DNA of 37,065 bases, filler included, from an uncultured virus (IMG/VR IMGVR_UViG_2061766007_000328) (taxonomy: Duplodnaviria > Heunggongvirae > Uroviricota > Caudoviricetes > Crassvirales). It is 2 parts of one record of this genome, joined end to end, with 100 filler letters (N's around TTAATTAATTAA, not from the genome) between each part and the next. Parts side by side here need not be neighbours in the genome. Positions count along the whole stretch, not along the records: positions 1 to 24,346 come from IMGVR_UViG_2061766007_000328; 1 more part is not named here. The stretch is one strand, 5' to 3'. Below, piece after piece: positions 13,675 to 35,881 of this stretch; positions within the stretch are counted from its first letter, which is position 1, and the number at the start of each line of letters is the position of its first letter. The notes beneath the pieces were generated by a model. That model saw nothing but the letters and a program-made list of their open reading frames with translations, was not told the origin of the DNA and did no database searches. The position numbers and the translations under genes were made by a program.

Positions 13675-13863
13675 TTAATTTTTCCAACCTTCATTGTTAA
13701 GCCACGGCTTATCGTTAACCCAGTAACCAGCCCCGAAGCATGACTTTATTGCCGTCCATACAAGCCTTGCGCCTCTGTACACTTCAGTCACTACACGCCA
13801 CTGACGTATATTGACCATCTTGTATCTGGCTGACAGCGCCTTATTTCCTTCGTGATAAATCAT
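13675..13863 (-). CDS. Small Trp-rich fibre-adaptor-like protein, allele A
   Basis: 62 aa, EVYRGARLVW and CFGAGYWVNDKPWLNNEGWKN; homologue at 22322-22513. Confidence 0.8.
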   Translation of the reverse strand: MIYHEGNKALSARYKMVNIRQWRVVTEVYRGARLVWTAIKSCFGAGYWVNDKPWLNNEGWKN

Positions 13864-14978
13864 AATTCCTCCGGCTCTTCTTCAGACTCTTCCTCCGGTT
13901 CGGTATCATCGTCCACCTCACCGACGGCAATTGAGTCATCCTCTTCATAGACATTGTATGTTTTGGTTATATCCTTAATTGCAATGGCATCGAACGCTTC
14001 CTGGGTAAGCCAAACCTCATCATCTTTCCTCTGGAAATCATCGGAGTTTATCTCAAGACTACCCGCCTGTACCCAAGTTCTAGTGGAACCGTCAACCTGT
14101 ATGATGTACTGGTCATACTTTTCCGTCTCGTCATTATATAAAAGATAAACAATACTTGTGGAAGCGTTCTCTTCTGACGGCAACTCGTCAACGATGCTCA
14201 TAGTCGTATTGTTCGTTCCAGGCTCTCCCTGCATTCCCTTAAGGCCATAGAAGGACAACGTAAGTATACCGTCCTCTATGCTCGCAACACACCTTGGTGT
14301 GCCCGGAAGCCAATCAACAGTAGCACTTGCATCCTGTATTCCAGCAGGCCCATTCTTTACCTTGAAGGTAAATTCCCTATCATCCTCAAGTGTAATCTTG
14401 ATTATATTATTCCCCTCAGGCTCAAGAGACTCTGTTGTCTGAGTGATGGACTTTATGGATGTTCCCTTGAGACCGCTGAAGGAGAAATGTATGTTCTTCT
14501 CCTCATTAGTTCCGCCTGTGGAAACATCTACAGCAGGCTCTCCGCCGGTATCGTCAATCTCAGCGTCAATCGTTCCGAATCCAGCAGGAGTTCCGGGGTC
14601 TCCCTTGACTCCCTTCTGCTCGTTAATCCACTCCTCAAGCGTACCTTCATACCCAGCCTCTACGGCAAGTTCATAATTCGACTTTCCCCTTGGACCAACT
14701 GGTCCTATATACGGGCGTATGGCATTACATATAGCATCATAGGCAACAAGAGCATTGACGTATGACTCGAGCAGCAATTCGCTCTGCATACTTGAGGATA
14801 CACCAAGGTCCCGTATCTGTATGACACTATACTTGCTCGGCTCTCCGTTATACCTTCCAGAATTCTTCAGGATAGATATTGCTGTCCTTTCCGACGTCGC
14901 CGCCATCAATGCAAGACCTGAATCCCCTCCTGCGGTAAACGATGCCACATATAGATGGTTTGTATTACAATTATCCAT
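13860..14978 (-). CDS. Collagen-motif fibre protein, allele A
   Basis: G-X-Y triplets, SNYELAVEAGYEGTLEEW motif, C-terminal WLTQEAFDAI..KDITKTYNVYE. Confidence 0.75.
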   Translation of the reverse strand: MDNCNTNHLYVASFTAGGDSGLALMAATSERTAISILKNSGRYNGEPSKYSVIQIRDLGVSSSMQSELLLESYVNALVAYDAICNAIRPYIGPVGPRGKSNYELAVEAGYEGTLEEWINEQKGVKGDPGTPAGFGTIDAEIDDTGGEPAVDVSTGGTNEEKNIHFSFSGLKGTSIKSITQTTESLEPEGNNIIKITLEDDREFTFKVKNGPAGIQDASATVDWLPGTPRCVASIEDGILTLSFYGLKGMQGEPGTNNTTMSIVDELPSEENASTSIVYLLYNDETEKYDQYIIQVDGSTRTWVQAGSLEINSDDFQRKDDEVWLTQEAFDAIAIKDITKTYNVYEEDDSIAVGEVDDDTEPEEESEEEPEEL

Positions 14979-14979
14979 A

Positions 14980-15768
14980 TCAATAAACGTATATCAATCT
15001 GTATGTCTGATTCGCAGCAAAGTTGCCAGTCCCTGCCGTAACTGTGAATGTTCCGTTGGAATATGACTTGCTTCCTGTGGTGTAGTAATACTCTCGTGCG
15101 GCTCGTGTTCCCGATGAGTTGTATCTGCAAGCGGTTGTGTACACGTTAGAGCCATCGCCAATTACACTTGACACAAGATAAGTCGAAGTCGAAGAGTTAG
15201 TAAGGTATGAACCTGATGAAGCCAAGGATAATTGCACCGCAAACATCTTCGGTTGTCCCGACACCGTAAAAGCGAGTGACAAAGCATTGCTTGAGCCAAC
15301 CTTCTTTGTCGTGGTCGCTACCGTTGCGGATGCTCCTGTATAGTTTCCCGTCACGCCCAAAATGGTTGTCCCACTCTTGATGTTTCCCGCCGTTATNNNN
15401 NNNNNNNNNNNNNNNNNNNNNNNNNNNNNNNNNNNNNNNNNNNNNNNCTTCGTGAGATACTTTCCACTTGTCGGAGTAATGTCCTGTGAGGATGTGGTCG
15501 GAGTTGCGGTCTTGGTTTCGGTCTGGATCGCCCCCACCGTAACTTGGCTCAAGCCGTCATACCCGTTATCTGCCGTGATGGTCTGCTGACTTGTCGAAGG
15601 CGCTGCCGTCTTGCTCTGCAACGAAGGCGTAGTAGAAATGCTATCTATCAAGTCTGCATAGTCATCCAATTTGGCACTTGAAGACACGGTTACGCCCTTG
15701 CCCTCTATCGCAGTCTTAATATCCGCTTTTGCCCCTTGGAGGCGAGTCAAATCGCTTGCTATGCTCAT
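14980..15768 (-). CDS. Tail-fibre-like protein, allele A (internal gap)
   Basis: [27 protein letters not shown]-terminus, two KTxxPxTSxQxIT...LxxVTV repeats, [13 protein letters not shown]. Confidence 0.7.
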
Positions 15769-15948: not shown

Positions 15949-16767
15949 TTACTTATCTGGACCCAATATAAAATCTCCTGTACCATTATTCCCATATAGA
16001 GTACCGCTAATCTTGTCATACATATAACCAACCTGACCAACTCTAACTGGGATCAAGTCATATACAAGATTATCTCCAACTACAATAGATAAACTCCCGA
16101 TTATAATAGGAGCATTATATGTAGTATATCCGCCGAATAACTTAAAAGAAGTTATATTAGATTTTAGTGGCCTTATTGTTTCGGTTTCTACTCCTCCTGT
16201 AATCTTTTTCGTAGTTGACAACAAAAAATACGTTAATTCATTTTCAGATATAGAAATACCACCGTTTGTTGCTACACCGCCAAGCGTAGAAGCATACGTG
16301 TGCATTCCTGTCGCAGCTGTTCTGCTATACCACTCAGCGTGGAATTGGGCATTTGGATCAGCCCCAAGTATCATATAAGACCTTGAAGATGTTACGGCCT
16401 TTAGTGTGCCGCTTATCTCAAAGTAGGTTCCACTCTGACAAGACAACGGTAATTCTATATATTGTGTTCCTGATGACCGTAAATACTCTATTTCAGAATC
16501 ATATAGCTTATAACCTATTGCCGTATCATTATATGTAATACATGTGTCATTCCAAGTTATTGATACTAAAGAGTCAGCTTTTTTTTGAGTTACTGACAAC
16601 ACGGCTGTAATTGAACCAACACCAGAAGTGAATGTTATATCCTTGGTTCTGGCGGGACCGGCATTGGCATCCGAGGAAACCATTATTGTCTGGTTCCCGG
16701 ATGCCGCCGTATACGTCAAGTATATCTTGTCGCCGGTCCCGTCTCCCCAAAGAATCTCTGTAACCAT
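15949..16767 (-). CDS. N-terminal half-BACON + LamG/lectin-like domain protein
   Basis: ASGNQTIMVSSDANAGPARTKDITF...LSVTQ, then EIEYLRSSGTQYI...DLIPV...GYMYDKISG..GTGDFILGP. Confidence 0.7.
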   Translation of the reverse strand: MVTEILWGDGTGDKIYLTYTAASGNQTIMVSSDANAGPARTKDITFTSGVGSITAVLSVTQKKADSLVSITWNDTCITYNDTAIGYKLYDSEIEYLRSSGTQYIELPLSCQSGTYFEISGTLKAVTSSRSYMILGADPNAQFHAEWYSRTAATGMHTYASTLGGVATNGGISISENELTYFLLSTTKKITGGVETETIRPLKSNITSFKLFGGYTTYNAPIIIGSLSIVVGDNLVYDLIPVRVGQVGYMYDKISGTLYGNNGTGDFILGPDK

Positions 16768-17372
16768 TAGCTGATAGTCCAGTTAGTATTGGATGTAACG
16801 GAAACAGACTGCGCTGTACCAGCAGCAGGAATCGTGATGGTAGAAGGACTGATGCTAAGGGTAGGATCTGCAGCAGCCTGGGTTATATTACAAACAGCAG
16901 CAGTACCACTGTTCGGAGTAACCGTAATCTGCGACGTCTTGGATGACGTGCTTGAGTTGGCAGAAATATTTGAAATGGTGATACTGAATGCGTACTGCGC
17001 AGATGCTCCAGGGTCACCGGAAATAGCCGCCCCGTTATTCGTCGATACAGAGTTGGCGGTATATGACGAGGGCAATGAAATACCTATATTGTCCGTACCA
17101 GTCTCTGTAAATGTCAGTTTGGAAGAGTTCGATGTTCCTGAAATAGTGACAGAACCACCAGTCTTTGCCACTGTAGCAGTTGAGTCAATAGTTACAAACT
17201 CCGTCTTTCCTGACTGGGTTACAGAAAGAGTCTTCGAATCCACACCTGAAGCCGAGAATGTTGCGGTGGTAGTTCTCGCTGTACGACCAGTATGTTCAGA
17301 AGCACTGAACGATACTGTATCATTTCCGCTACCACTTGTCTTTGATGGATTTAACCACGATGCGTATGCCAT
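16767..17372 (-). CDS. Circularly permuted BACON/Ig protein (201 aa)
   Basis: Begins ASWLNPSKTSGSGN...RT...VTQ and ends LSISPSTITIPAAG...VTSNTNWTIS. Confidence 0.8.
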   Translation of the reverse strand: MAYASWLNPSKTSGSGNDTVSFSASEHTGRTARTTTATFSASGVDSKTLSVTQSGKTEFVTIDSTATVAKTGGSVTISGTSNSSKLTFTETGTDNIGISLPSSYTANSVSTNNGAAISGDPGASAQYAFSITISNISANSSTSSKTSQITVTPNSGTAAVCNITQAAADPTLSISPSTITIPAAGTAQSVSVTSNTNWTIS

Positions 17373-17388
17373 ATAATATCTATTTTAA

Positions 17389-17754
17389 TTATTCTACAAT
17401 CCAGTCAGTATTGCTGTATACATTTACATCCCTTTCGAACTCTTGATACACCCAAATAATCTCATTAGGCTCAATCTCGAGATAGTATTCTTTCTCATCA
17501 GGTTTCTCCGGCGAGCGAGGTACACATATAAGTTTTATTACCGCATTCACCCCAGAGCCAATCACGTCAACCGAACTGCTCGCCCTGCTCTGCAACAACG
17601 ACAGACTTGCCTTCTGTATCGCTTTCTCTATATCGGCATCTGCTATTACGCAAGAACTCTCCGGCACTATCTGGGCTATCACCTTCCTACACGCAGAAAC
17701 TGAAGCCTTTATGTCAGAGAGCGTAAGCGTCACATTTGCCTTGAGACAACTCAT
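17389..17754 (-). CDS. Hypothetical protein ending in a half-BACON
   Basis: C-terminus YLEIEPNEIIWV...VNVYSNTDWIVE. Confidence 0.75.
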   Translation of the reverse strand: MSCLKANVTLTLSDIKASVSACRKVIAQIVPESSCVIADADIEKAIQKASLSLLQSRASSSVDVIGSGVNAVIKLICVPRSPEKPDEKEYYLEIEPNEIIWVYQEFERDVNVYSNTDWIVE

Positions 17755-18077
17755 TTCATCAGCGGCATTATCGGTCCGAGATTGATTGGTTTGGCTTTTT
17801 CCTCCCTATAACCACCGGGGAAATCCTCGTCGGGAATCCGCACAGTCACAACGGCTATAAGTGAACCAGCCTCCAGTTTTATCCTGTTATTATTCTTTAC
17901 AACCGGCAGGATAAAGTTCCCCTCGTCGTCCTTCTTAACGTCAGCCTGCGTAAACGCATACGTCCTGTCGTTATTGTATAACTCTATGGTATAGTTGTCC
18001 GACTCCTGACTGAAGCCAAGAGCCTTGACATCTATCAGCAGTTTAGCGTCTGACCCTTCGTAGAAATTACCTGCCAT
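17751..18077 (-). CDS. Small beta-sandwich structural protein (BppU-N-like)
   Basis: 108 aa, GSDAKLLI...GSLIAVVTVRIPDEDFPGGYREE; ATGA coupling to the next gene. Confidence 0.6.
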   Translation of the reverse strand: MAGNFYEGSDAKLLIDVKALGFSQESDNYTIELYNNDRTYAFTQADVKKDDEGNFILPVVKNNNRIKLEAGSLIAVVTVRIPDEDFPGGYREEKAKPINLGPIMPLMK

Positions 18078-18123: not shown

Positions 18124-18357
18124 CTAATACTTACGCTTCTTGAAAGCCTTGACACAGTTTACAAGCGCACCTACGATAGCAATGATTCCGCACGCTACGT
18201 AGAAGCCCTTGCCCTCATTGAACGCCGGAACTACCGCAAACACAGTTGCGGCGATCCACAGAGCGGTGGGAATGAGGTTTACGATGAAGTCCTTGACCTC
18301 CAGCTTTCCGGCTTCGATAGCCTTCTCAGCCTCCTGTTTGATTTTCTCTTCTTCCAT
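18124..18357 (-). CDS. Small two-TM membrane protein
   Basis: Two hydrophobic helices, basic C-terminus. Confidence 0.75.
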   Translation of the reverse strand: MEEEKIKQEAEKAIEAGKLEVKDFIVNLIPTALWIAATVFAVVPAFNEGKGFYVACGIIAIVGALVNCVKAFKKRKY

Positions 18358-18360
18358 ATT

Positions 18361-18555
18361 TTACTGTATTATTAATCCCTGACTAATTGGTATTGTCTTG
18401 GTAGAACCGCCAAGGCCAACAATCGTAATATTTCCTCCTACCTGCGAGTTCGACAGCTTGCTTACAGTAACCTCTACTACCATATCCCCAGAGCCGTTCG
18501 CGGGATATATATTAGCCCACTGTACATCCACAGATGCGCTCCAAGCAGTATTACA
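18361..18555 (-). CDS. True C-terminus of the large multi-BACON protein
   Basis: CNTAWSASVDVQWANIYPANGSGDMVVEVTV...IPISQGLIIQ*; overlaps in sequence with the end of inverted piece 18811-19081. Confidence 0.8.
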   Translation of the reverse strand, partial: CNTAWSASVDVQWANIYPANGSGDMVVEVTVSKLSNSQVGGNITIVGLGGSTKTIPISQGLIIQ

Positions 18556-18810
18556 CCNNNNNNNNNNNNNNNNNNNNNNNNNNNNNNNNNNNNNNNNNNN
18601 NNNNNNNNNNNNNNNNNNNNNNNNNNNNNNNNNNNNNNNNNNNNNNNNNNNNNNNNNNNNNNNNNNNNNNNNNNNNNNNNNNNNNNNNNNNNNNNNNNNN
18701 NNNNNNNNNNNNNNNNNNNNNNNNNNNNNNNNNNNNNNNNNNNNNNNNNNNNNNNNNNNNNNNNNNNNNNNNNNNNNNNNNNNNNNNNNNNNNNNNNNNN
18801 NNNNNNNNNN

Positions 18811-19081
18811 GGTTATAACCGTAACTTATCCTGCCAACACTACGCTTGATGGAATATCGCGCTGGGTTAAAGTTTCTGCTGATGATTCTACGCTTGGTGT
18901 TATGGATCAGACATGCAACATTTCTCAGGCAGGTATAACAGTAGTTACATTCCGCGTTCAGGACGAGAACTACAACGACGTAACATCGTTGGTGTTTGCT
19001 CCTAACGACATGTACAAAAAGATATATGTCCGGTGTAATACTGCTTGGAGCGCATCTGTGGATGTACAGTGGGCTAATATA
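18811..19081 (+). CDS. Inverted contig: fragment of the multi-BACON protein
   Basis: Same translation as 25330-25550 and bridges it to 18361-18555; N-flanked. Confidence 0.85.
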
Positions 19082-22321: not shown

Positions 22322-22513
22322 TTAGTTGTTTTTCCAACCCTCAGTATTGAGCCAAGGCTTCTCATTTACCCAAAAGCCAGCGCCAAAACAAGACCTTATA
22401 GCGGTCCATACAAGATTAAGTCCTTTGTATATCTCAACAGTTGACCACCATTTTCCGTTAGCATTAAGTCTATATTTGCCAGCAAGCGGCTTATCCCCTT
22501 CGTGATAAATCAT
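22322..22513 (-). CDS. Small Trp-rich fibre-adaptor-like protein, allele B
   Basis: Homologue of 13675-13863. Confidence 0.8.
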   Translation of the reverse strand: MIYHEGDKPLAGKYRLNANGKWWSTVEIYKGLNLVWTAIRSCFGAGFWVNEKPWLNTEGWKNN

Positions 22514-23670
22514 ATCTCTGACACCTCCTCATATACATTATAAGTCTTTGTCGGATCTATCTCACCAGCATCTACCAGCGCGTCGAAGTCTTCCTCTGAC
22601 AGCCATATCTCATCATCTTTCCTCTGGTATTCCGAGAAATCAACATCTGTGCTTCCAAATGGTACCCAATAGTACGTACTGCCATTTTTTACGGTCACAT
22701 ACTGCTTCTTTGTGTCGTCATCCTCATTACCTATAAGATATGTCTTTTGATGAGTAGAAGAACTTGCTTGCAGTGTCCCGGTGTAGTCCGTACCATTATA
22801 TGACACAACAACGCCGGCAGGGATATTTGAAACTACCGGAGCAGAAGATCCGTCCCAGGCCAATACCGTATCGTTTGTTGACAATGCACCAACAGATGAC
22901 TGAAGCGCGGCTATTACTATAGACTGGTTGTCAAGGGCGGCATTAGTGTTCGCAATTTTTACCCCAACTGCAATACCTTCGCTATCCCTTACAGCACTTT
23001 CATGTGTTACAGGATAAAATTCATTTCCATCGGAATCTTTTACATGCTTTATTGGAGCATCAACAGTAGTAACTATATCCCCAACATAAGATGCTCCGCC
23101 AAGTTTCCTGTTCGTCTCGTCAATCTCGCTCTTGAGTTGTACTCCCATAGCAGCCGATAATGCTAATCTAGGGGTGTCCGTCTCAAGGTTATTGGCGATT
23201 GATACTGGAGGACCAGTTGGACCAATAGGGCCAGTATCACCCTTAAGGTTCTTAAAGCTGAAAACAAGACTCTTCTCAAAGTCGTCACCAGTCATTGTTA
23301 CTGTCACCTCTGGGGTTCCGATGTTAGGGTCTACCTCAGCATCAACCTCTTTGAGTTTAACTGGGTCGCCCTTGTCTCCTTTATCTCCTTTTGGTCCAAC
23401 ATACTTGTTGACAACAGACATTATGGCATCGTATGCAACCAAGGCGTTGATGTACGACTCGAGCAAAAGTTCAGTAGCCAAGCCAGAAGACAGACCTATG
23501 TCACGTATCTGTATAATGCTGTACTTGCTCGGCTCTCCGTTATACCTTCCCGAATTCTTCAGGATAGATATCGCAGTCCTTTCCGACGATGCCGCCATCA
23601 ACGCAAGGCCTGAATCCCCTCCTGCGGTAAACGATGCTACATATAGATGGTTTGTATTACAATTATCCAT
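22510..23670 (-). CDS. Collagen-motif fibre protein, allele B
   Basis: First ~83 aa near-identical to 13860-14978; GPKGDKGDKGD; shared QRKDDE.WL...KTYNVYEE C-terminus. Confidence 0.75.
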   Translation of the reverse strand: MDNCNTNHLYVASFTAGGDSGLALMAASSERTAISILKNSGRYNGEPSKYSIIQIRDIGLSSGLATELLLESYINALVAYDAIMSVVNKYVGPKGDKGDKGDPVKLKEVDAEVDPNIGTPEVTVTMTGDDFEKSLVFSFKNLKGDTGPIGPTGPPVSIANNLETDTPRLALSAAMGVQLKSEIDETNRKLGGASYVGDIVTTVDAPIKHVKDSDGNEFYPVTHESAVRDSEGIAVGVKIANTNAALDNQSIVIAALQSSVGALSTNDTVLAWDGSSAPVVSNIPAGVVVSYNGTDYTGTLQASSSTHQKTYLIGNEDDDTKKQYVTVKNGSTYYWVPFGSTDVDFSEYQRKDDEIWLSEEDFDALVDAGEIDPTKTYNVYEEVSEI

Positions 23671-23676
23671 ATCTCG

Positions 23677-23748
23677 TTAATTTGTCCAAAGTTTCTGTGC
23701 CACACACTCCGATAGCGAAGGGCTATTTCCACCGTCAACTACCTTCAT
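23677..23748 (-). CDS. Possible 23-aa mini-ORF inside an allele-specific 78-bp insertion
   Basis: MKVVDGGNSPSLSECVAQKLWTN*; its ATG follows TGAT exactly as the collagen gene ATG does in allele A. Confidence 0.35.
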   Translation of the reverse strand: MKVVDGGNSPSLSECVAQKLWTN

Positions 23749-23749
23749 A

Positions 23750-24346
23750 TCAATAAACGTATATCAATCTGTATGTCTTGCTCGCGGCAAAAGAACCTGT
23801 TCCTGCCGTGACCGTGAAAGTACCATTGCTATATGACTTGCTTCCCGTGGTGTAGTAATACTCTCGCGCCGCGCGTGTTCCTGATGAGTTATAACGGCAA
23901 GCGGTGGTATATACATTCGTCCCATCACCAATCACGCTTGAAACAAGGTATGTCGAAGTCGAAGAGTTGGTAAGGTATGAACCTGATGAAGCCAAGGACA
24001 ACTGCACGGCAAACATCTTCGGTTGTCCAGACACCGTGAAAGCGAGTGACGAAGCATTGCTTGAGCCAACCGTCTTTGTCGTGGTTGCCACCGTTGCGGA
24101 TGCCCCCGTATAGTTTCCCGTCACGCCAAGGATGGTAGTTCCACTCTTGATGTTTCCCGCCGTGATGTTGGCATCTATGGAGGAAGTCACCGCACCTACC
24201 GTGACCTTCGTGAGATACTTTCCGCTTGTTGGCGTGATGTCCTGCGATGAAGTGGTAGGGGTTGCGCTCTTCGTTTCCGTCTGGATTGCACTCACAGTAA
24301 CTTGGCTCAAGCCGTCATACCCGTTATCTGCCGTGATGGTCTGCTG
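23750..24346 (-). CDS. Tail-fibre-like protein, allele B (N-terminus lost)
   Basis: Near-identical protein to 14980-15768. Confidence 0.75.
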
Positions 24347-24446
24347 NNNNNNNNNNNNNNNNNNNNNNNNNNNNNNNNNNNNNNNNNNNNTTAATTAATT
24401 AANNNNNNNNNNNNNNNNNNNNNNNNNNNNNNNNNNNNNNNNNNNN
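24347..24446. other. Artificial contig linker N44-TTAATTAATTAA-N44
   Basis: Exactly 100 nt, symmetric, stop codons in all six frames. Confidence 0.95.
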
Positions 24447-24447
24447 T

Positions 24448-24584
24448 ACCGCTCTGTGGACCGCCGCAACTGTGTTTGCGGTAGTCCCGGCGTTCAATGA
24501 GGGCAAGGGCTTCTATGTGGCGTGTGGAATCATCGCTATCGTAGGTGCGCTTGTAAACTGTGTCAAGGCTTTCAAGAAGCGTAA
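24448..24584 (+). CDS. Inverted allelic fragment of the two-TM gene 18124-18357
   Basis: TALWTAATVFAVVPAFNEGKGFYVACGIIAIVGALVNCVKAFKKR. Confidence 0.85.
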
Positions 24585-24594
24585 NNNNNNNNNN

Positions 24595-25319
24595 GAGATG
24601 ACACTTGCATGCCAAGATGCACCATAAGGAGACACAGACACGTCCACAATACTAGGCGAAGACGAATTCCCGTCGGGCGCAATGCTTATGGAAGAAGCTG
24701 ATACAGATATTGCACCGACCTGAGTAATTCCGCGCTTTACAACAGTTATCTCCGCGACATCAATATAAGTACCATCTATCTGCTGGCTGAATATTATTGT
24801 TCCAGTCTGGTCAGAATTGTATTCCTGCGCAGGATACGTCCAGATTTGTACATGNNNNNNNNNNNNNNNNNNNNNNNNNNNNNNNNNNNNNNNNNNNNNN
24901 NNNNNNNNNNNNNNNNNNNNNNNNNNNNNNNNNNNNNNNNNNNNNNNNNNNNNNNNNNNNNNNNNNNNNNNNNNNNNNNNNNNNNNNNNNNNNNNNNNNN
25001 NNNNNNNNNNNNNNNNNNNNNNNNNNNNNNNNNNNNNNNNNNNNNNNNNNNNNNNNNNNNNNNNNNNNNNNNNNNNNNNNNNNNNNNNNNNNNNNNNNNN
25101 NNNNNNNNNNNNNNNNNNAACCGTCGCTATAATATCTGCCGTATTGCCGCCAGCGTCACTGCTATTATATGCGCTGAGCGTTGCGCCTCCAGATATCTGA
25201 GCCGTCCAACTTGTAGTACTCTGTACATGAATTGTGACCGTGGTGTCACTGGCAGATATGCTTGAACTACCAGTCACGCTCGCAGAAAGCGTATTCGCAG
25301 GAGCGATAGGCTCTTCCTC
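24595..25319 (-). CDS. Allelic fragments of the multi-BACON protein
   Basis: 24595-24854 and 25119-25319 duplicate parts of 26390-27130 with mostly synonymous changes. Confidence 0.85.
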
Positions 25320-25329
25320 NNNNNNNNNN

Positions 25330-27856
25330 TGACATATATCTTTTTGTACATGTCGTTAGGAGCAAACACCAACGAGGTTACGTCGTTGTAGTTCTCGTCC
25401 TGGACGCGGAATGTAACTACTGTTATACCTGCCTGAGAAATGTTGCATGTCTGATCCATAACACCAAGTGTAGAATCATCAGCAGAAACTTTAACCCAGC
25501 GCGATATTCCATCGAGCGTTGTGTTGGCAGGATAAGTTACGGTTATAACTCCATCTCCCACGACGTTATCGGTATCGCCGCTAAGCACTATGCCAGAACT
25601 TGCAGTTGCAGACCACGCAACGTTTGACGTAACAACTATTGTAAGTGTACCTCCGCCAGATCCGACGCTAGCAAACCTCTTATCTATAGAAAGTTCATTC
25701 TGGACGGGAACAACAGAGTCATCATCATACTCAGCCAGGAACTCTTCGGTATACGCACTTATAACATCATACTTCTCGCTATACGCGACGAACGTAGTGT
25801 CTTCACTGATACTTATGGCAGACGCGTATGACTGATAAGCCGAATAAGAACCAGTTGTCTTATACTTATAGAAAATAGCCGCACCCTGCGTAGCGCAAGT
25901 TATCGTAACCTGGTTTTCATCCTGCGATATAACCGGAGTTGCCGGCGCCGCAGGAAGCTGTGTTACAGTAAACGACTGGTTTACTCCAGAATTTGCTACT
26001 GCTGCAACCGTCAATGTTCCCATCCTTATCTCCGTATCAGAGTTCGAGGATATTGTAACAGCGACAGTAGTACTTCCTGCGCTTCCGCTATTCTGGCCTA
26101 ATGATATCCAAGTGTCGCCACTCCCCTTAGTTATAGTCCATGCGCAGTTCGCGGCTATAACCATATTCCTGGTCATTGCGGACTGGCTACCGGAAGCAGG
26201 GAAGGAAGTCGTGCTGAAGGATACACTTATGCTCGGCTGGGCCTGAGATACGCTTATGTCAGCATATTCATCAGTACCATCAAGATAGACCCTTACAGTC
26301 CAATTCCTAGAAGACTCTGTTGCTGCAGCATAAATACTTAACTTATTAAGTGATGTGTCTGCAGAACATGCAATTGCGCTGGTGTTCCCATAGATGACAC
26401 TTGCATGCCAAGATGCGCCATAAGGAGACACAGATACGTCCACAATACTGGGCGAAGACGAATTCCCGTCGGGCGCAATACTTATAGAAGAAGTTGATAC
26501 AGATATTGCACCGACCTGCGTAATTCCGCGCTTTACAACAGTTATCTCAGCAACATCAGTATAAGTACCATCTATCTGCTGGCTGAATATTATTGTTCCT
26601 GTCTGGTCAGAATTGTATTCCTGCGCAGGATACGTCCAGATTTGTACATGTGTTCCGCTTGTTGCAGAACCGCTTGTGGTCGGAAGCGCATATCCCGTAA
26701 ATAAACCAGATGTGTCTTTCTTGCGCATCTTCCAAGGAACGGAACTCTTTATATAGGCCGTAGTCGTGGAATCGGCGCTCGCCCCAAGTTCAACAGAGCC
26801 AGGAACAGTTCTGGTTACAGTACCGCCCTGACTTATAGAAAGCTGGACAGAAACATCTGGAGTACAGTCTGGATCATCAGATGTAATAGTCACGATAAAC
26901 GAACGCGAACTAGAAGTAGAGTTGGAGCCTACAGTCGCTATAATATCTGCCGTATTGCCGCCAGCATCGCTACTATTATATGCGCTGAGCGTTGCACCTC
27001 CAGATATCTGAGCCGTCCAACTTGTAGTGCTCTGTACATGAATTGTGACAGTGGTGTCACTGGAGGATATGTTTGAACTGCCAGTCACGCTCGCAGAAAG
27101 CGTATTCGCAGGAGCGATAGGCTCTTCCTCACCATCACCACTGCTTTCAGGCGCTGAAGCTTCCTGATGAATCGTAGCTACCACATAACCGCGAGGAAGC
27201 AACCCTTCTGCAAGGCATACTCTAACGCTTATATTCCTACTATCTTCTCCTTCCTCAAGAGGAAGAATCCTTACTTTGAGTCCGCTCGGGGAATTGTCAG
27301 TACAAACAGCGGCAGTATATCCGGCAAAAGCGCCACTGGTTCGGACATCTTTATTCTGGAACTCTATACCCTCAGGCAAATCGTATCCATACTTATTATA
27401 GTTTATAAATACGTACCAGCTAGGTATCCTTCCATCTGCCCTACTGCATACAAGATTCGCGTAACCACCTTCTTCGTTAACATGTGCCGGCTCGAAGTAC
27501 ACTTCATAGTTACCCTCTTCTGTACCGAACTGTATTATTGAACACCACGAACTAGCCTCATCATTATTAAGAGAGGCTTTTATCCGGACAGACCTGCCAT
27601 AAACCCAGTCATTTTCCTCTCGGTCAAGCAGGATGTCTATCCATTCAGAATCCGTAGAAGTGCCATAGGCAGTAAGACCATCTTCGGATATTGTATAATC
27701 ACATCCATCAATCACCATGAACTTTATCCAGTCATTCTCTGGAATAACAGCAGTCCATGAACCTGATGCGCGAAGTTTTGCTGTCCTACCTGCGAATCCA
27801 ATATGGCTGACGGACACGTGCTTCATGCCGTCTTCTCCAATAATCTTTATGGAATT
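25330..27856 (-). CDS. Large multi-BACON/Ig-repeat fibre protein, main fragment
   Basis: Repeated V.S/AN..W...W....SGS...R...TVTQ units and an FN3-associated-like TPVISQ...VTITCATQGAAIFY unit. Confidence 0.85.
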
Positions 27857-27866
27857 NNNNNNNNNN

Positions 27867-29531
27867 CACAACAACAGTCTCATCGTTGCTAAGGCATATA
27901 TTGACCTCAGATGTCCTCTGGGTGTTAAGACTTACTGCGGCATCGGCATTGGAGAGCCTAAGAACGTCGCCATATTTTTCTGCCCGGAACCAATTGTAGC
28001 TCTGTGTTTCGGCAAGTTTCCATGTATCTGTAGAGTTGTTTACCGTCACCGTTAAGTCTACATAGTCCTCAACCGAATTCGCTCCGACGATAAACTTACC
28101 CTCGCTATTTATTGTTACAGGATTTGGAGTTACCGTTATGTATGGTTCGGCAACTGACTGGTCATCACCGCCAACCTTACGCACAGTAAGTTCATAAGGC
28201 GAAGAATTAACGCCAGCATACGAAGCACGAATATTAACCGTCTGCATCGAAGCAAGTGTGTTCTTTCCTGTAACAAGGCCATTTACAACTTCCGCAGCAA
28301 GCCTGTTGTCAGTCGTCCACTGGATGTCAGGATTCGTTGCATTGGTAACCTCTGTACTTGATATCAGGCGGTCATTTACATATTTATCGTAGAACGCACG
28401 AAGCTGTGTGGTGCCGGCAGCGTTGATCTCCCTGACATTATCATCTGATGTGATACGAAGGACATAAGTAGTACCATCACCTGTATCGCCACCAGGAATA
28501 TCGGAAGACTTTTCCTCAAGTGCCGCCACCTTTTCCTGCAGTACTTTTATCCTTGCCCAAAGATTATATATAGTTTTTGCGTTTGCCAGCAAACCTGTCT
28601 TATCATCAGGCTCCTGAACGAGATTCTGGAACTCCGCCCAAGTATAGATTTTCTCTATGCCATTGTTGAGGGCAATAAGTTCCTCAATCATATTGGCAAG
28701 AACGCGTCCCATATTGGCAGAAAGCGCAGCATCTGTCCTTGTGCTGGTNNNNNNNNNNCGGTTCCTGAACGAGATTCTGGAACTCCGCCCAAGTATAGAT
28801 TTTCTCTATGCCGTTGTTGAGGGCAATAAGTTCTTCAATCATATTGGCTAGAACGCGTCCCATATTGGCAGAAAGCGCAGCATCTGTCCTTGTGCTGGTG
28901 AGATTGTTGACAATCTCTACGCCACTGCCCGGAGACAGGTTCTTTATCATGTTCCAAAGGTCGTAGCCAGCCTTTGCCGACAGGGGTTTTGTCGAATCGT
29001 TGACGTTGTAGCTCTTAAGGTCATCCTTTGTCAGAGCCTTACCGCTAAGCGTATCAAGGGCCAACTTAAGAAGTTTGACGTCCTCTGCAGAAGCAGCCTT
29101 GCCTCTTCCTCCACCNNNNNNNNNNCTCTTGCTCCGTCCCCTCGAAGCCGTAGCGAACAGCAATCTGGTATGCAGACTCTCCCTGCCCGACATAAGGAAG
29201 CAACCCTTCAAGATATTTACCGAAGATTTCGCCAATCTTTACGCGCCGGTTCTGTAAATCCTGCACGATGGCCACCTCCTCGTTACCAGTAAGCGGATAT
29301 GCTTCCGGCAAATCAGTATCACGGACNNNNNNNNNNGCCGCTAAGCGTATCAAGGGCCAATTTAAGAAGTTTGACGTCCTCTGCAGAAGCAGCCTTGCCT
29401 CTTCCCCCACCGTAGTTCTCAACTATGGTAATAGCGGCATTAAGCGACTCAATCCATTCTTGCTCCGTCCCCACGAAACCATAGCGAACAGCAATCTGGT
29501 ATGCAGACTCTCCCTGCCCGACATAAGGAAG
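27867..29531 (-). CDS. N-terminal fragments (overlapping alleles) of the same fibre protein
   Basis: Pieces 29126-29326, 29337-29531, 28759-29115, 27867-28748 overlap in sequence: VRDTDLPEAYPL, GESAYQIAVRYGF.GTEQEW, NNLTSTRTDAALSANMG, Big_2-like and BACON units. Link to 25330-27856 crosses a gap. Confidence 0.7.
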
Positions 29532-32582: not shown

Positions 32583-35500
32583 TTACTGTTCTAAAGAAGA
32601 ATTGTATTGACGACCAAATCTCTCCAGATGCCTGTTCCAATCCTTGTCGAAGAAATCATCGTCAGAATCACTCTCCACAACATCTGACGCATTAGCCGCT
32701 CCGCCATACAGGATATTGAAATGCTCCCTGTAGAACATAACCTGAAACAGCGCAGATACACGGTCCGTATTCTTCTCCGGTGCATACGATACGAGTTCCT
32801 GGAGCAATGCCCTGTTGCGTATATGATACAGTTGAGGTATCTCCTCTATATGCATCTCGCCGTTTTCCTCCATTACCTCAACGGGTACTGTTTTCTTGAG
32901 CCAGTCGTTGATGAGGTCAATTCCCGTACTGATTAATGCAGCATTGACTGATACGCCCTTTATTGACGAGCCGAACATCGAATACTTCACCAGCCCCCTC
33001 TGGCGCAACCACTCCGGGCAGTCTGCGAGCCTCCACAGGCATTTCATTTTGGAGAAATAGCCGTACATCAATTTACGGTTGCTCTCGTACATCACCTGCG
33101 CATTGTAGAATATGGACAGTAGTCTGACAATCTCATATCCATCTTCAGCCATCTGCTGCCTTCCGGTATACTCTGCTGCTATCTCGTCATTGAACAGGTC
33201 GAACACTATCACGGACATAAGAGATACTGACTCCGCCTTGTCATTGTCAACGGGGTCAACGCCTATACAATACCTGTTGTTGGGTATATCCCCGGATGGA
33301 GGCATCGTGTATATCTCCAATGCACCCTTATCCTGTATTCCCTCGTCATACTCGCGTATGGGTATGTCGGAGGTGGCCTTGAATTCAACCCCGCCGCCAA
33401 CATCAATGAGCGTTCCGACATATACGTCGTCAAAGATGCGTGGGCTTGAGTCTATCTGACGCAATCTCTCGTTGAGCATTACCGTAGGGAAGAACGTAGA
33501 ACGTACGCGAAGTATAGCCTCTTCAGGTGTAATCGGCATCTGTGCGACACGCTTGAGAAGGGAACCGGCATCTCCACCCTGCTTGACCATATCACGCTCC
33601 ATAAGTATCTCGAGAAGGGCTTTAACGACATCAGAGTTGCCGTCCTTGTCCATACAGCCTTCACGGGATATGTATGACGGAAAGAAATAAGCGAATTTGC
33701 TTGCACCCTTTCCGCGTTTGTCGTACACATTCTCCAGGGAGTACACTTCGTATGCATCAGGCTTATACAGGATAGTCCTTACACTGGCAAAATCTGAAGC
33801 CTCATCACCTGCAGTTCCGACTCCGTACAAAAGCGAGAACACGTCGCTACCATTTTTCACGGAGTCACGCACGTTATCCCACACGTCTTTGAAGTTCGGA
33901 TAATTACCGATTTCCTCAAACAGAATGAAACCTCGCTTGCCTCGAATCTTACCCTCGTCATCCTTGACGGACAAGCCCATCACGGAGTTGAGTGAACCCA
34001 TCTGGTTGCCGTTGCTGTTCTTATAGCCCATTACCCACAGCATATCTCCGGCACGGCGTGTAAGCATAAGCCTCGGAAACTCCGTATTGGCAGCAGTAAA
34101 GTCTATTATAGGGGTGAACTTGGAGAACGTTCCGTCTTTCTGGGCAAGATACTCCTTTGTGTATGCCGTAAGGACCGTGGTTACCCTCCTGTTTGCCTCC
34201 TCATCTTCGCCAAGAATAAGGTTGTGCGCCATAACGCTTGCCAACGTGTATGATTTTCCGCAATTATGTGTTTGAACAAAATCACCTACAAGATATGAGG
34301 AATCTTCAGCATCTACAGTAACGCATTTACACTTCTCCCTACCAACATATTCAATGCCAACAATACACGTCTTTCGCTTTCTCGACTCATTTGAATCAGA
34401 ATCAATTAGAGCCTTCTTTCTTGGTAACGTAAATATACAACTATCAGCATAAACAGTTACAAAATATGCGTCTTTACATTTTATATATTCCCCATTCTTT
34501 TTATATCCTGCCTGCTGTATCGAATAATTACAATTATATCCCAAACTCCTTGCGACCTCAATAATGTCAAAGCACAGTTGCGCAGATGTGGTTGTGATCT
34601 GCGGGGCCCTTGTCTGCGTTGCACCATAACCGTCAGTATCAAACAAACCCTGCAAAAGCCTCAATCTATCATTTCGTGACCCATATTTGTAGATATCAGG
34701 GATATACTTCTCATCAGACTTTTTCATCCATAACCCCTCGCCGTATAGATATGAAATATCAAGTTTTATTGCCCAGGTTCTATCATCTGAACTAATCTTA
34801 TAAACCTGATACGGGATTTGTGATGCATAGTGCTGAATGTCATCATATAGCCCAGATATCGTTACTTGGCCTTTATACCCAACAGTCCTGAAGCACCCGT
34901 CGCCTAGGAGAACCCCCATTGTATATGGCTCTATTGGAAGGGATTGTTGGCTAAACTCCACGCCCTGATTTGACGGGATAAAATACTGATACTCTATTCC
35001 AGATGGTATTCTCCAACTTTTAGGACGTTGTAATGCGTAGTGCTGTAAAAGTTCCTTTGTTGTCCTCTGAACAACCTTTCCGTTCTTTCTGATGACATTC
35101 CATATATGGTCATCCGAAGCATAAACTATCCTACCATCGCGCAATGTAAACTTATAAACATCGGCTTCGTCATCAAAAGGAATATCAGTTACTGTCGTTA
35201 TGTTACCGTATGTACCAAAAAGCCTGTCCCCAATCTTTATATCTCCCCACTGCTTTATACCATCTGGAGTATAAACTTTCTGTGAGTATGGGTGTGCGCC
35301 GCGCCTGGCTAATTCAACGCAGTGCTTTCCGTGCTTTCTGGCTTGGTCTATATAGTGAAAACGGTAGTATATCCCCTCCCACATAGCAGGGAAACCTTCT
35401 ACACGATGGACAATGCCCGTTTTCTCTGACCGCTCGCTAATCATAATCGGAGCATAGTTGAGGAACCAGTACATCTGACCAGTTATCCATTCTCCATCAG

Positions 35501-35864
35501 ACTCCCTCACATACCCCTCACGGCATCTTCTTACCTCTTCACGGAACCATTTGCCGTATTCACTGTTTGGATTAGCGTTAGGCTTGAGAAGAGAATAGCA
35601 TCCATTATCCTGATAGAACTTGATTGCCGGTCTGAAATAGTCCATATCCTCCAGTATATGCGGATGCGTAATGTCCACTATTATTCGTCCTTGACTGTCT
35701 CTTGGCAAGTCTTTAGCCCTCGGCCTCTCCCCTATCATCCATTTAAGAAGCGGAACAGTATCAATGAAATCCATGAACTGCTCCGCCACCTCCTCTGGAT
35801 ATTGAGCCAGAAGCTCATCCGTTATTGGCGTTTGAAAAGAATTGGTCTGTATTATTACGCTCAT
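32583..35864 (-). CDS. terL: Terminase large subunit (crAss-like), intein-containing
   Basis: Spliced Walker A ARRG/CGKS, Walker B FILFEEIG, GVGTAG coupling motif, nuclease IGVDPVD and TDRVSA; about 750 aa after intein removal. Confidence 0.95.
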   Translation of the reverse strand: MSVIIQTNSFQTPITDELLAQYPEEVAEQFMDFIDTVPLLKWMIGERPRAKDLPRDSQGRIIVDITHPHILEDMDYFRPAIKFYQDNGCYSLLKPNANPNSEYGKWFREEVRRCREGYVRESDGEWITGQMYWFLNYAPIMISERSEKTGIVHRVEGFPAMWEGIYYRFHYIDQARKHGKHCVELARRGAHPYSQKVYTPDGIKQWGDIKIGDRLFGTYGNITTVTDIPFDDEADVYKFTLRDGRIVYASDDHIWNVIRKNGKVVQRTTKELLQHYALQRPKSWRIPSGIEYQYFIPSNQGVEFSQQSLPIEPYTMGVLLGDGCFRTVGYKGQVTISGLYDDIQHYASQIPYQVYKISSDDRTWAIKLDISYLYGEGLWMKKSDEKYIPDIYKYGSRNDRLRLLQGLFDTDGYGATQTRAPQITTTSAQLCFDIIEVARSLGYNCNYSIQQAGYKKNGEYIKCKDAYFVTVYADSCIFTLPRKKALIDSDSNESRKRKTCIVGIEYVGREKCKCVTVDAEDSSYLVGDFVQTHNCGKSYTLASVMAHNLILGEDEEANRRVTTVLTAYTKEYLAQKDGTFSKFTPIIDFTAANTEFPRLMLTRRAGDMLWVMGYKNSNGNQMGSLNSVMGLSVKDDEGKIRGKRGFILFEEIGNYPNFKDVWDNVRDSVKNGSDVFSLLYGVGTAGDEASDFASVRTILYKPDAYEVYSLENVYDKRGKGASKFAYFFPSYISREGCMDKDGNSDVVKALLEILMERDMVKQGGDAGSLLKRVAQMPITPEEAILRVRSTFFPTVMLNERLRQIDSSPRIFDDVYVGTLIDVGGGVEFKATSDIPIREYDEGIQDKGALEIYTMPPSGDIPNNRYCIGVDPVDNDKAESVSLMSVIVFDLFNDEIAAEYTGRQQMAEDGYEIVRLLSIFYNAQVMYESNRKLMYGYFSKMKCLWRLADCPEWLRQRGLVKYSMFGSSIKGVSVNAALISTGIDLINDWLKKTVPVEVMEENGEMHIEEIPQLYHIRNRALLQELVSYAPEKNTDRVSALFQVMFYREHFNILYGGAANASDVVESDSDDDFFDKDWNRHLERFGRQYNSSLEQ
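34263..35297 (-). mobile_element. 345-aa class 3 intein with LAGLIDADG homing endonuclease
   Basis: Starts AHPYSQKVYTPDG, block B SDDHIW, block F KCKCVTVD, ends VQTHN/C; endonuclease motifs MGVLLGDG and LQGLFDTDG. Confidence 0.92.
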
Positions 35865-35881
35865 TATCAACGAGTTAGACG

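Follow-up and report, generated by a model that had tools for sequence, protein, structure and literature searches.

BACON domains nicked at one loop across consecutive genes of an uncultured Crassvirales phage: candidate connectors of a modular appendage

When three neighbouring phage genes each seem to encode only part of a domain at the end that faces the next gene, are they the remains of one broken gene, or do they encode separate proteins that share domains between them? The question is raised by a 37,065-nucleotide (nt) stretch of DNA from an uncultured virus assigned to Crassvirales (IMG/VR IMGVR_UViG_2061766007_000328), here called the window and always meant at its full length, in which three consecutive genes, X, Y and Z, carry complementary halves of BACON domains, which are immunoglobulin (Ig)-like beta-sandwiches, at their facing termini. 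We find that the domain is nicked in one and the same loop at both junctions, and this recurrent, conserved nick, used twice in series as an exchangeable connector, is what is new here; literature searches brought up no description of a split BACON domain or of a split-Ig fibre joint of this kind. Indirect evidence from sequences, namely fusions of every junction in relatives and the co-occurrence of the partner genes despite permuted order, makes it most likely that the halves rebuild one domain between chains.

The open reading frames (ORFs) and their junctions had been described in an earlier note made from the sequence alone, and the ORF check agrees with it on the 16-nt spacer between X and Y, the TAATG overlap between Y and Z and the ungapped DNA. 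X ends in YYLEIEPNEIIWVYQEFERDVNVYSNTDWIVE directly before its stop codon, and thus with the first BACON half only; Y opens with MAYASWLNPSKTSGSGN and closes with LSISPSTITIPAAGTAQSVSVTSNTNWTIS before its own stop, and Z opens with MVTEILWGDGTGDK (Table 1). The frame of Y differs from that of X across the spacer, and base 16767 is common to the Y stop and the Z start. The X-Y-Z stretch is free of N's, and all genes in that part of the window lie on the minus strand.

Table 1. Positions in the window of the three genes, their parts and the adjoining candidate docking gene.
Feature	Position	Strand	Description
X	17389-17754	minus	121 amino acids (aa); ORF call; proposed anchor/adaptor; N-terminal part variable, BACON first half at the C-terminus
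X_C	17392-17487	minus	X residues 90-121; BACON first half (YYLEIEP...VYSNTDWIVE); aligned with the C-termini of 13 X homologues
X-Y spacer	17373-17388	minus	16 nt, A/T-rich, from the X stop (TAA) to the Y ATG
Y	16767-17372	minus	201 aa; proposed shaft unit that opens with a BACON second half, continues with a whole BACON-like Ig unit and closes with a BACON first half
Y_N	17214-17372	minus	Y residues 1-53; BACON second half (MAYASWLNPSKTSGSGN...RT...VTQ); Pfam BACON match
Y middle unit	16869-17207	minus	Y residues 56-168; complete Ig-like/BACON-like beta-sandwich; AlphaFold 2 (AF2) model and VIA-align
Y_C	16770-16859	minus	Y residues 172-201; BACON first half (LSISPSTITIPAAGTAQSVSVTSNTNWTIS)
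Z	15949-16767	minus	272 aa; proposed tip: BACON second half and LamG/ConA-like lectin domain
Z_N	16585-16767	minus	Z residues 1-61; BACON second half (MVTEILWGDGTGDK...RT...VTQ); Pfam BACON match
Z C-terminal domain	15952-16503	minus	Z residues 89-272; LamG/ConA-like jelly roll, presumed glycan-binding tip; homology to P0056 287-485
108-aa Ig-like protein	17751-18077	minus	Directly upstream of X with a 4-nt overlap; candidate docking platform

We identified the termini as half-domains by comparing them with models of different extent. Pfam BACON (PF13004) matches Y at residues 4-53 with 35.2 bits and Z at residues 11-62 with 25.2 bits, both above the gathering cutoff of 25, and the Pfam scan of X gave no BACON match. 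This model has 61 positions and is confined to the C-terminal part, or second half, of the structural domain, which has been solved in BoGH5A (PDB 3ZMR); the full-length Pfam model is BACON_2 (PF19190, “Viral BACON”), with 94 positions and a cutoff of 25 bits. Residues 5-55 of a Y profile align with sequence positions 43-92 of the solved chain 3ZMR_A (E 0.002), and thus the structural BACON domain starts about 40 residues earlier. Of the 3ZMR domain, only the last ~50 residues have a counterpart in Y_N and Z_N, and the missing first half of each terminal unit sits at the C-terminus of the preceding protein. A complete sandwich of ~90 residues in one chain is found in the Y middle unit and in neither of the terminal units. 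In the relative P0123, the Y-type N-terminus likewise aligns with BACON_2 positions 41-87 of 94, in a weak match (E 0.075). For reference, tandem BACON arrays are present in the window in an 869-aa ORF (25274-27883), which has a Pfam BACON match at residues 585-642 with a first half before it and within which lies the intact unit that had been noted at 25330-27856. The PHROGs scan assigned no family to X, Y or Z, and the X-Y-Z region had no match among GenBank phages by blastn.

Do first and second halves belong together? Every junction type (X-Y, Y-Y and Y-Z) has rare relatives in which it lies within one chain. X_C and Y_N are fused in P0109 (1195 aa) and P0137 (828 aa), each time behind a large unrelated N-terminal part. 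Y_C is fused to Y_N in P0002 (411 aa), P0130 (433 aa), about 20 clusters of 408 aa and P0009 (807 aa), the last comprising roughly four units and still starting with a second half. Fusions of Y_C to Z_N occur in P0056, P0152, P0153 and P0154 (481-493 aa), whose lectin domain is the one that window Z carries, and also in P0123 and P0168 (283-287 aa). No X_C-Z_N fusion was present among the sequences read. These gene fusions are Rosetta-stone evidence that X_C works with Y_N and Y_C with Z_N.

The full-length BACON_2 model runs nearly end to end across the fused Y-Y junctions of P0002 (residues 174-258, model 2-92, 30.2 bits), P0130 (177-265, model 2-93, 35.7 bits) and P0009 (188-266, model 2-86, 34.5 bits), and across the X-Y junction of P0109 (996-1074, model 2-88) with 23.6 bits, slightly below the cutoff of 25. 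An intact unit is thus the first half found at the end of X or Y followed by the second half found at the start of Y or Z, as had been supposed from the sequence. The spacing of the tryptophans around the nick agrees with this, with 8 residues between them across X/Y and 9 across Y/Z here, 6-11 in fused forms and 9 in the intact unit of the window; judged by these counts, the residues that flank the nick add up to an ordinary loop.

To what extent is the cut conserved? A first viral-locus search returned 17 loci in which the whole length of Y is matched at 52-65% identity, 16 of them with the X-Y-Z arrangement, and a wider search with alignment A1 gave 73 viral loci, many of them near-identical contigs and the contigs of the first 17 included. 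All 68 complete Y genes encode 200-207 aa, begin with an ATG at MAY(A/S)(S/A)W and stop 3 residues past the final W. In 69 of the 73 loci, the gene immediately upstream of Y is an X-type ORF with a first half at its end (64 recognised by regular expression and 5 by eye), and in 64/68 the gene immediately downstream is a Z-type ORF with a second half at its start (58 and 6, respectively). The split points are therefore conserved, and the gene order mostly so, which supports the earlier note. The gaps between X and Y measure 5-33 nt and fall into the three relative frames in 38, 13 and 13 loci; those between Y and Z range from -1 nt (33 loci) up to 53 nt. Surveyed loci have a single Y gene between X and Z.

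An exhaustive HMMER search with Y against 1.84 billion representatives of 50%-identity clusters found 1,841 matching representatives at E <= 0.001, a large family. Among the best 150 of these, 81 are 190-230 aa long and aligned end to end, and the rest comprise 7 shorter fragments, 4 proteins of 231-500 aa and 58 of more than 500 aa, mostly long tandem arrays. A strict test on both termini is passed by 58 of the 81 representatives of ~200 aa, and the other 23 have the same ends by eye, three of these with a C-terminal extension of ~17 residues. The core residues of the half-domains (L.V.P, SN..W, W, G.G, R, V.Q) are kept at the identical cut down to ~40% identity. Judged by these sequences, the split-terminus pattern is far beyond chance.

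We considered whether the stops could be assembly or sequencing errors, could reflect decay, or could be bypassed by programmed frameshifting or read-through to yield a single long fibre protein after all. The assembly of the window is indeed untidy, containing N gaps, a spacer between contigs and duplicates that look like strain variants, and fused homologues exist; but the X-Y-Z region itself is ungapped, and the same stops and ATG starts recur in 68/68 complete Y genes with gaps that vary in length and occupy all frames. Moreover, the partners are non-adjacent or reordered in several genomes. In records without an adjacent X, an X-type ORF was found elsewhere in 4/4 (85-135 aa, ending in SNTNWNIN or similar; E 1e-11 to 1e-13), and in the two types of record without an adjacent Z, a Z-type ORF was found upstream in 5/5 searched. 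Permuted orders include Y-Z-X (one record) and Z...X-Y, and loci with a fused Y-Y carry a 74-aa gene between X and Y-Y in 5/5. X-, Y- and Z-type partners thus co-occur whether or not they are neighbours, and in genomes where their genes are dispersed or in another order the halves cannot meet until they have been translated.

Neither frame nor adjacency is fixed across relatives, as programmed frameshifting or read-through would have it. Together, the varying gaps and frames, the genes' own ATGs and the permuted order exclude sequencing error, decay and programmed frameshifting; as far as the sequence data reach, the idea of a single long product is refuted, and we consider it extremely unlikely. 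They also bear out the description of X, Y and Z as three separate polypeptides with complementary BACON halves. A concern raised with that description was that fused homologues would mark the stops here as decay or error. Fused ORFs do exist, as exceptions, and the locus survey found them at 0/68 loci; with fused forms such a small minority, the stops seen here are the normal state and not decay.

What do the proteins look like on their own? The AF2 monomer model of Y has a predicted local distance difference test score (pLDDT) of 90.1 and a predicted template modelling score (pTM) of 0.68, with pLDDT values of 90, 88, 79, 76 and 56 for the five models. The middle unit (residues 56-168) is mostly above 90 and superimposes on the BACON domain of 3ZMR_B (residues 42-129) with a VIA-align Z of 8.7 and a root-mean-square deviation (rmsd) of 2.6 A over 86 residues, a match that likewise sets the true start of the domain ahead of the PF13004 model; other Ig-like folds are also similar, the best being 7ptb (Z 9.5). 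For the stand-alone X, the Atlas model was poor (pLDDT 0.40), and an Atlas search with X gave no usable relative.

A complemented junction could be modelled in the natural Y-Z fusion P0056 (pLDDT 89.2, pTM 0.61), using an alignment (A7) of fused and stand-alone Z homologues in which a few N-terminal residues of the stand-alone Z rows are misplaced. Two other alignments, A5 and A6, were dropped, as they placed Z proteins or lectin fragments on the wrong N-terminal part of P0056; a viral-locus search with P0056 returned no locus. The P0056 junction (170-257) forms a full sandwich at pLDDT 88-95, with B (186-192) and E (213-219) strands of 7 residues each (strand lengths were taken from the DSSP strings of the models). 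Junction and lectin domain together match the two-domain carbohydrate-binding protein 4dqa of Bacteroides ovatus (Z 14.5, 264 residues, rmsd 6.8). The C-terminal lectin domain itself (287-486) matches those of laminin G, neurexin LNS, agrin, pentraxin and Vibrio sialidase at Z 13-14 (1dyk, 2h0b, 3v64 and 1w0o at Z 13.4-13.8), as well as amidase accessory domains at up to Z 15.3. Window Z is colinear with P0056 229-485 (27% identity, E 1e-9), and through the model of this homologue its C-terminal domain is predicted to have a LamG/ConA-like fold. The lectin/LamG-like end that had been proposed for Z is thus supported by homology and by fold matches.

These models bear on a reading in which Y closes on itself, its own C-half completing its N-half in a circularly permuted two-domain monomer, so that X_C would pair with Z_N or both would be orphans. 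Both termini of the Y monomer are modelled with confidence (pLDDT 85-94, pTM 0.68), the halves are compatible in cis, and the short linkers would, by geometric reasoning, permit two antiparallel sandwiches side by side. However, the strands that would have to pair are short in the Y model (B 191-194, E 22-24) compared with the 7 residues each of the complemented P0056 junction, and AF2 monomers tend to self-complement exchanged strands. The E strand of the orphan N-half of P0056 (20-23) is short as in the Y monomer and unlike that of the complemented junction. This suggests, indirectly, that the Y termini are not packed into a full sandwich in the monomer model. Natural fusions, moreover, join X_C to Y_N (P0109, P0137) and Y_C to Z_N (P0056, P0123 and others), and we regard self-closure as very unlikely.

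We therefore turn to the arrangement that we favour, and that we hold to be probable though well short of certain: X, Y and Z would be made separately, with the TAATG overlap coupling translation of Y and Z, and the halves would come together as two rebuilt BACON domains that link anchor, shaft and tip in a defined chain. The three would be separately translated structural proteins of one phage appendage, with each joint a BACON Ig-like beta-sandwich whose chain is interrupted in the loop that follows the “SN..W.I.” strand. Strands A, A', B and C (the first ~30-35 residues) would come from the upstream partner, and strands C' to G (the last ~55) from the downstream one. Once the proteins are made, X_C would pair in trans with Y_N and Y_C with Z_N, each pair making one rebuilt domain. 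The product would resemble beads on a string with a 1:1:1 stoichiometry, in which X is a variable anchor, Y a shaft with one whole Ig unit and Z a LamG-like lectin tip. The conserved halves would serve as standard plugs and sockets, while kinds of tip and lengths of shaft would be swapped by recombination at gene borders. The appendage would probably hang from the head-tail connector region and bind glycans.

Several observations weigh against this chain. X_C and Y_C alone match no Pfam or PHROG family, and hidden Markov models (HMMs) of the half-domains scored insignificantly (-4 to +2 bits) against the window's own 869-aa BACON protein; they did fall there in the expected order (551-584, then 586-642), which at such scores we set aside as evidence. 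The 73 loci, with their near-identical contigs, are not 73 independent observations. The Y monomer is confident throughout, and halves of Y_C and Y_N type are compatible in cis, as the Y-Y fusions attest. The orphan N-half of P0056 reaches pLDDT 88-96, so halves may be modelled as stable alone and pLDDT cannot tell complemented from orphan halves; P0056 is, furthermore, a relative with 27% identity in the Z part and not the window protein. Finally, the virion location and glycan binding are predicted from gene neighbourhood and fold.

Some of these points would also fit a reading in which the half-motifs are relics of gene fission that do not pair, with the proteins independent or bound to one another by other surfaces; it would account for the lack of family matches of X_C and Y_C and for the high pLDDT that AF2 gives to orphan halves. 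Against such relics, the core residues of both halves are kept to ~40% identity at the exact same cut, a half sandwich would expose its hydrophobic core, and the three partner types co-occur despite scrambled gene order. We consider this reading distinctly improbable.

Could Y instead polymerise head to tail, each Y_C completing the next Y_N, with X priming and Z capping a pilus-like fibre of variable length? Y bears both kinds of half, and fused halves of Y_C and Y_N type form one canonical BACON domain (BACON_2 at 30-36 bits in P0002, P0130 and P0009). The N-half of Z in Y-Y phages (MAESWLKYTPASG...) resembles that of Y, and no obvious motif bars Y_C from taking Y_N. On the other hand, X and Z enclose just one Y gene in surveyed loci, and shaft length appears to be genetically encoded, as Y (200-207 aa), Y-Y (408-433 aa) and a form of about four units (807 aa), with the terminal halves, or the N-terminal one, retained. 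Shafts of one, two and four units encoded in genes would be superfluous if Y polymerised freely; they argue for a fixed length, and a defined chain fits them at least as well as a polymer. In addition, X_C is unlike Y_C here, and Y_N is set apart from Z_N by a W-to-G.G segment shorter by ~6 residues; these differences suggest two distinct types of joint. We thus hold a Y polymer to be unlikely. If it existed, it would be a chaperone-free viral analogue of donor-strand-exchange pili, with only the rebuilt BACON domains holding the Y chain and subunit supply setting its length, and the nicked Ig domain would be a general plug and socket of gut phages; we find that prospect doubtful.

How does the proposed anchor-shaft-tip chain compare with known systems? 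The analogy with donor-strand exchange that had been drawn for this locus stands in principle only. In chaperone-usher pili (Fim, Pap, Caf1), an incomplete Ig-like subunit is likewise completed by the next, in a linear fibre with an adhesin at its tip. However, a single strand is donated in these pili, whereas here a multi-strand half, of three strands, would be exchanged, with ~30-35 residues from one chain and ~55 from the next; the break comes after the SN..W.I. strand and leaves more than a final (G) strand to be supplied. In pili, a chaperone and usher (or a protease) drive the exchange and the major subunit homopolymerises, whereas Pfam and PHROG scans of the neighbouring ORFs here found no chaperone or usher; these neighbours are phage genes for structure, packaging and lysis. 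Type V pili of Bacteroidia also work by strand exchange and can be likened to the present system.

Completion of an Ig-like fold by another chain is already known, from chaperone-usher pili, from the Lactococcus phage Tuc2009 and from the Pseudomonas podophage A1002, whose nozzle is rebuilt from two proteins. In the crystal structure of Tuc2009, according to the available text (PMC4742702), a 25-residue C-terminal beta-hairpin of BppU completes the sheet of the small beta-sandwich of BppA, a carbohydrate-binding accessory protein, and the composite resembles a titin Ig domain. The likeness lies in an Ig-like fold rebuilt between two phage proteins from which a lectin-type module hangs, as assembly in trans would give here by analogy. 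Tuc2009 differs in having one joint and not a chain of two, and in adding a hairpin to a mostly complete domain, in contrast to the split of ~35 plus ~55 residues proposed here; its joint has not been presented as a recurrent exchangeable connector, and a sequence relation to BppU or BppA is not expected. In A1002, the accessible part of the report (PLoS Biol 2026, PMC13730344) describes two separately encoded tail proteins that together restore, through beta-strand complementation, the domains of a single canonical protein, and fibre dimers that dock by beta-sheet augmentation. The restored domains are a beta-propeller and a platform, not BACON, and belong to the tail core and not to an exchangeable fibre joint.

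Closest in sequence are the BACON domains of crAss-like phages, whose tandem repeats were described by de Jonge et al. 2019 (PMC6949934); they share fold and sequence family with those studied here and are tail-associated in gut phages, and the word “split” is absent from the available text of that paper. The described units are whole and lie in one chain, whereas the terminal units here are nicked at one loop and divided between consecutive proteins. The available text of the crAss001 atlas (PMC10172136) leaves the tail fibres unresolved and makes no mention of BACON. Papers that came up for BACON domains and complementation deal, by title and abstract, with mucin glycans and mucinases of Bacteroides and not with phages. 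Glycan or mucin binding is itself no more than a proposed function of the BACON family.

If the halves do snap together, gut phages would own a simple joint for repeated use, in the form of a small Ig-like domain with a cut in one loop, by which separately encoded anchors, shafts and glycan-binding tips could be combined and swapped at gene borders. This would explain the free exchange of host- and mucus-binding modules in phages of Bacteroidota. It would also provide an annotation rule that links small “hypothetical” ORFs into one appendage, as half-domains escape both Pfam and PHROGs, and a natural split-domain connector for the engineering of phage receptor-binding proteins. As a viral system that works without chaperones, it would further join the few known fibres that are built by fold complementation.

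The variability of the parts around the joints can be seen among relatives. The N-half of Z is conserved, and the C-termini of Z proteins measure 81-364 aa, being short tails in some cases and LamG-like domains or a module of leucine-rich appearance in others. Elsewhere the LamG-like domain is also present alone, in tandem or behind other N-terminal adaptors (loci L018-L026); in P0155, P0170 and P0172 it is present two or three times in tandem, with or without an N-terminal BACON half. A motif of the form MSIAS(D/E)L..L...K.D...AI..KGV.V......LDDYA.L(I/V)DSI heads both a 262-aa ORF of the window (14980-15768, minus strand) and a LamG-like lectin protein of another phage (L026:3830-4546), and may be a second kind of exchangeable attachment module. 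At the other end of the proposed chain, X-type N-termini (L110, L109, L108, L001:3692-3988) contain 2-5 copies of a repeat of ~11 residues around R(I/V)GG(I/V)S, varying in copy number, and these repeats may be the virion-docking part. In one lectin-domain gene (L027:4001-4570), the frame is interrupted by three stops, every one of them a TAG; relatives carry E or Q at two of these positions, and read-through of TAG lengthens the longest open frame of that locus from 298 to 832 codons. These sequence features suggest TAG reassignment in that phage.

Where on the virion might such an appendage sit? The 108-aa protein encoded next to X is homologous to the C-terminal domain of gp6-like head-tail connector proteins of siphovirus-like relatives, as a profile comparison shows (hhalign of A8 versus A9, probability 97.4%, E 9.5e-12); the matching region corresponds to residues ~122-212 of a 221-aa protein of locus L011, which has a Pfam Phage_connect_1 match at 14-86. 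A BLASTP comparison of the two single sequences gave nothing. In those relatives, X-Y-Z is flanked by the connector gene on one side and the head-completion gene (Phage_HCP) on the other. Judging from this neighbourhood, the appendage is probably mounted on the neck or connector and is not a classical trimeric tail fibre.

Elsewhere the window encodes a terminase, fragments of a portal protein, large fibre proteins and lysis functions, and weak crAss_PVA matches below the Pfam cutoff hint at a crAss-like phage. The ORF for the terminase large subunit (32583-35870, minus strand) is unusually long, at 1095 aa with ~190 extra N-terminal residues, and its profile matches fall in two stretches (197-542 and 535-1054). 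Two paralogous fibre cassettes (13823-15588 and 22473-24346) share 79-89% DNA identity at a spacing of ~8.7 kb. One consists of 262-aa and 372-aa ORFs followed by a 2232-aa ORF and the other of 186-aa and 386-aa ORFs followed by a 1087-aa ORF, and both of these large ORFs match phrog_24896 and phrog_14959.

The window is a stitched scaffold with several N10 gaps and, at 24347-24446, an N-flanked six-frame-stop contig spacer (TTAATTAATTAA). Many tandem duplicates with 91-97% identity look like strain variants. The stretches 18812-19030 and 18131-18267 are inverted copies of 25331-25549 and 24448-24584, respectively, and a fold-back inverted repeat with 50-nt arms (18508-18557 and 19032-19081) surrounds a masked stretch. 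A 56-aa ORF in this area (18361-18531, minus strand; start MDVQWANIYPANGSG) was examined as a possible fourth split gene and rejected: its frame continues upstream (...RCNTAWSASVDVQWANI) into the masked region, and from its sequence it seems to be the final BACON unit, still intact, in a copy of the 869-aa protein.

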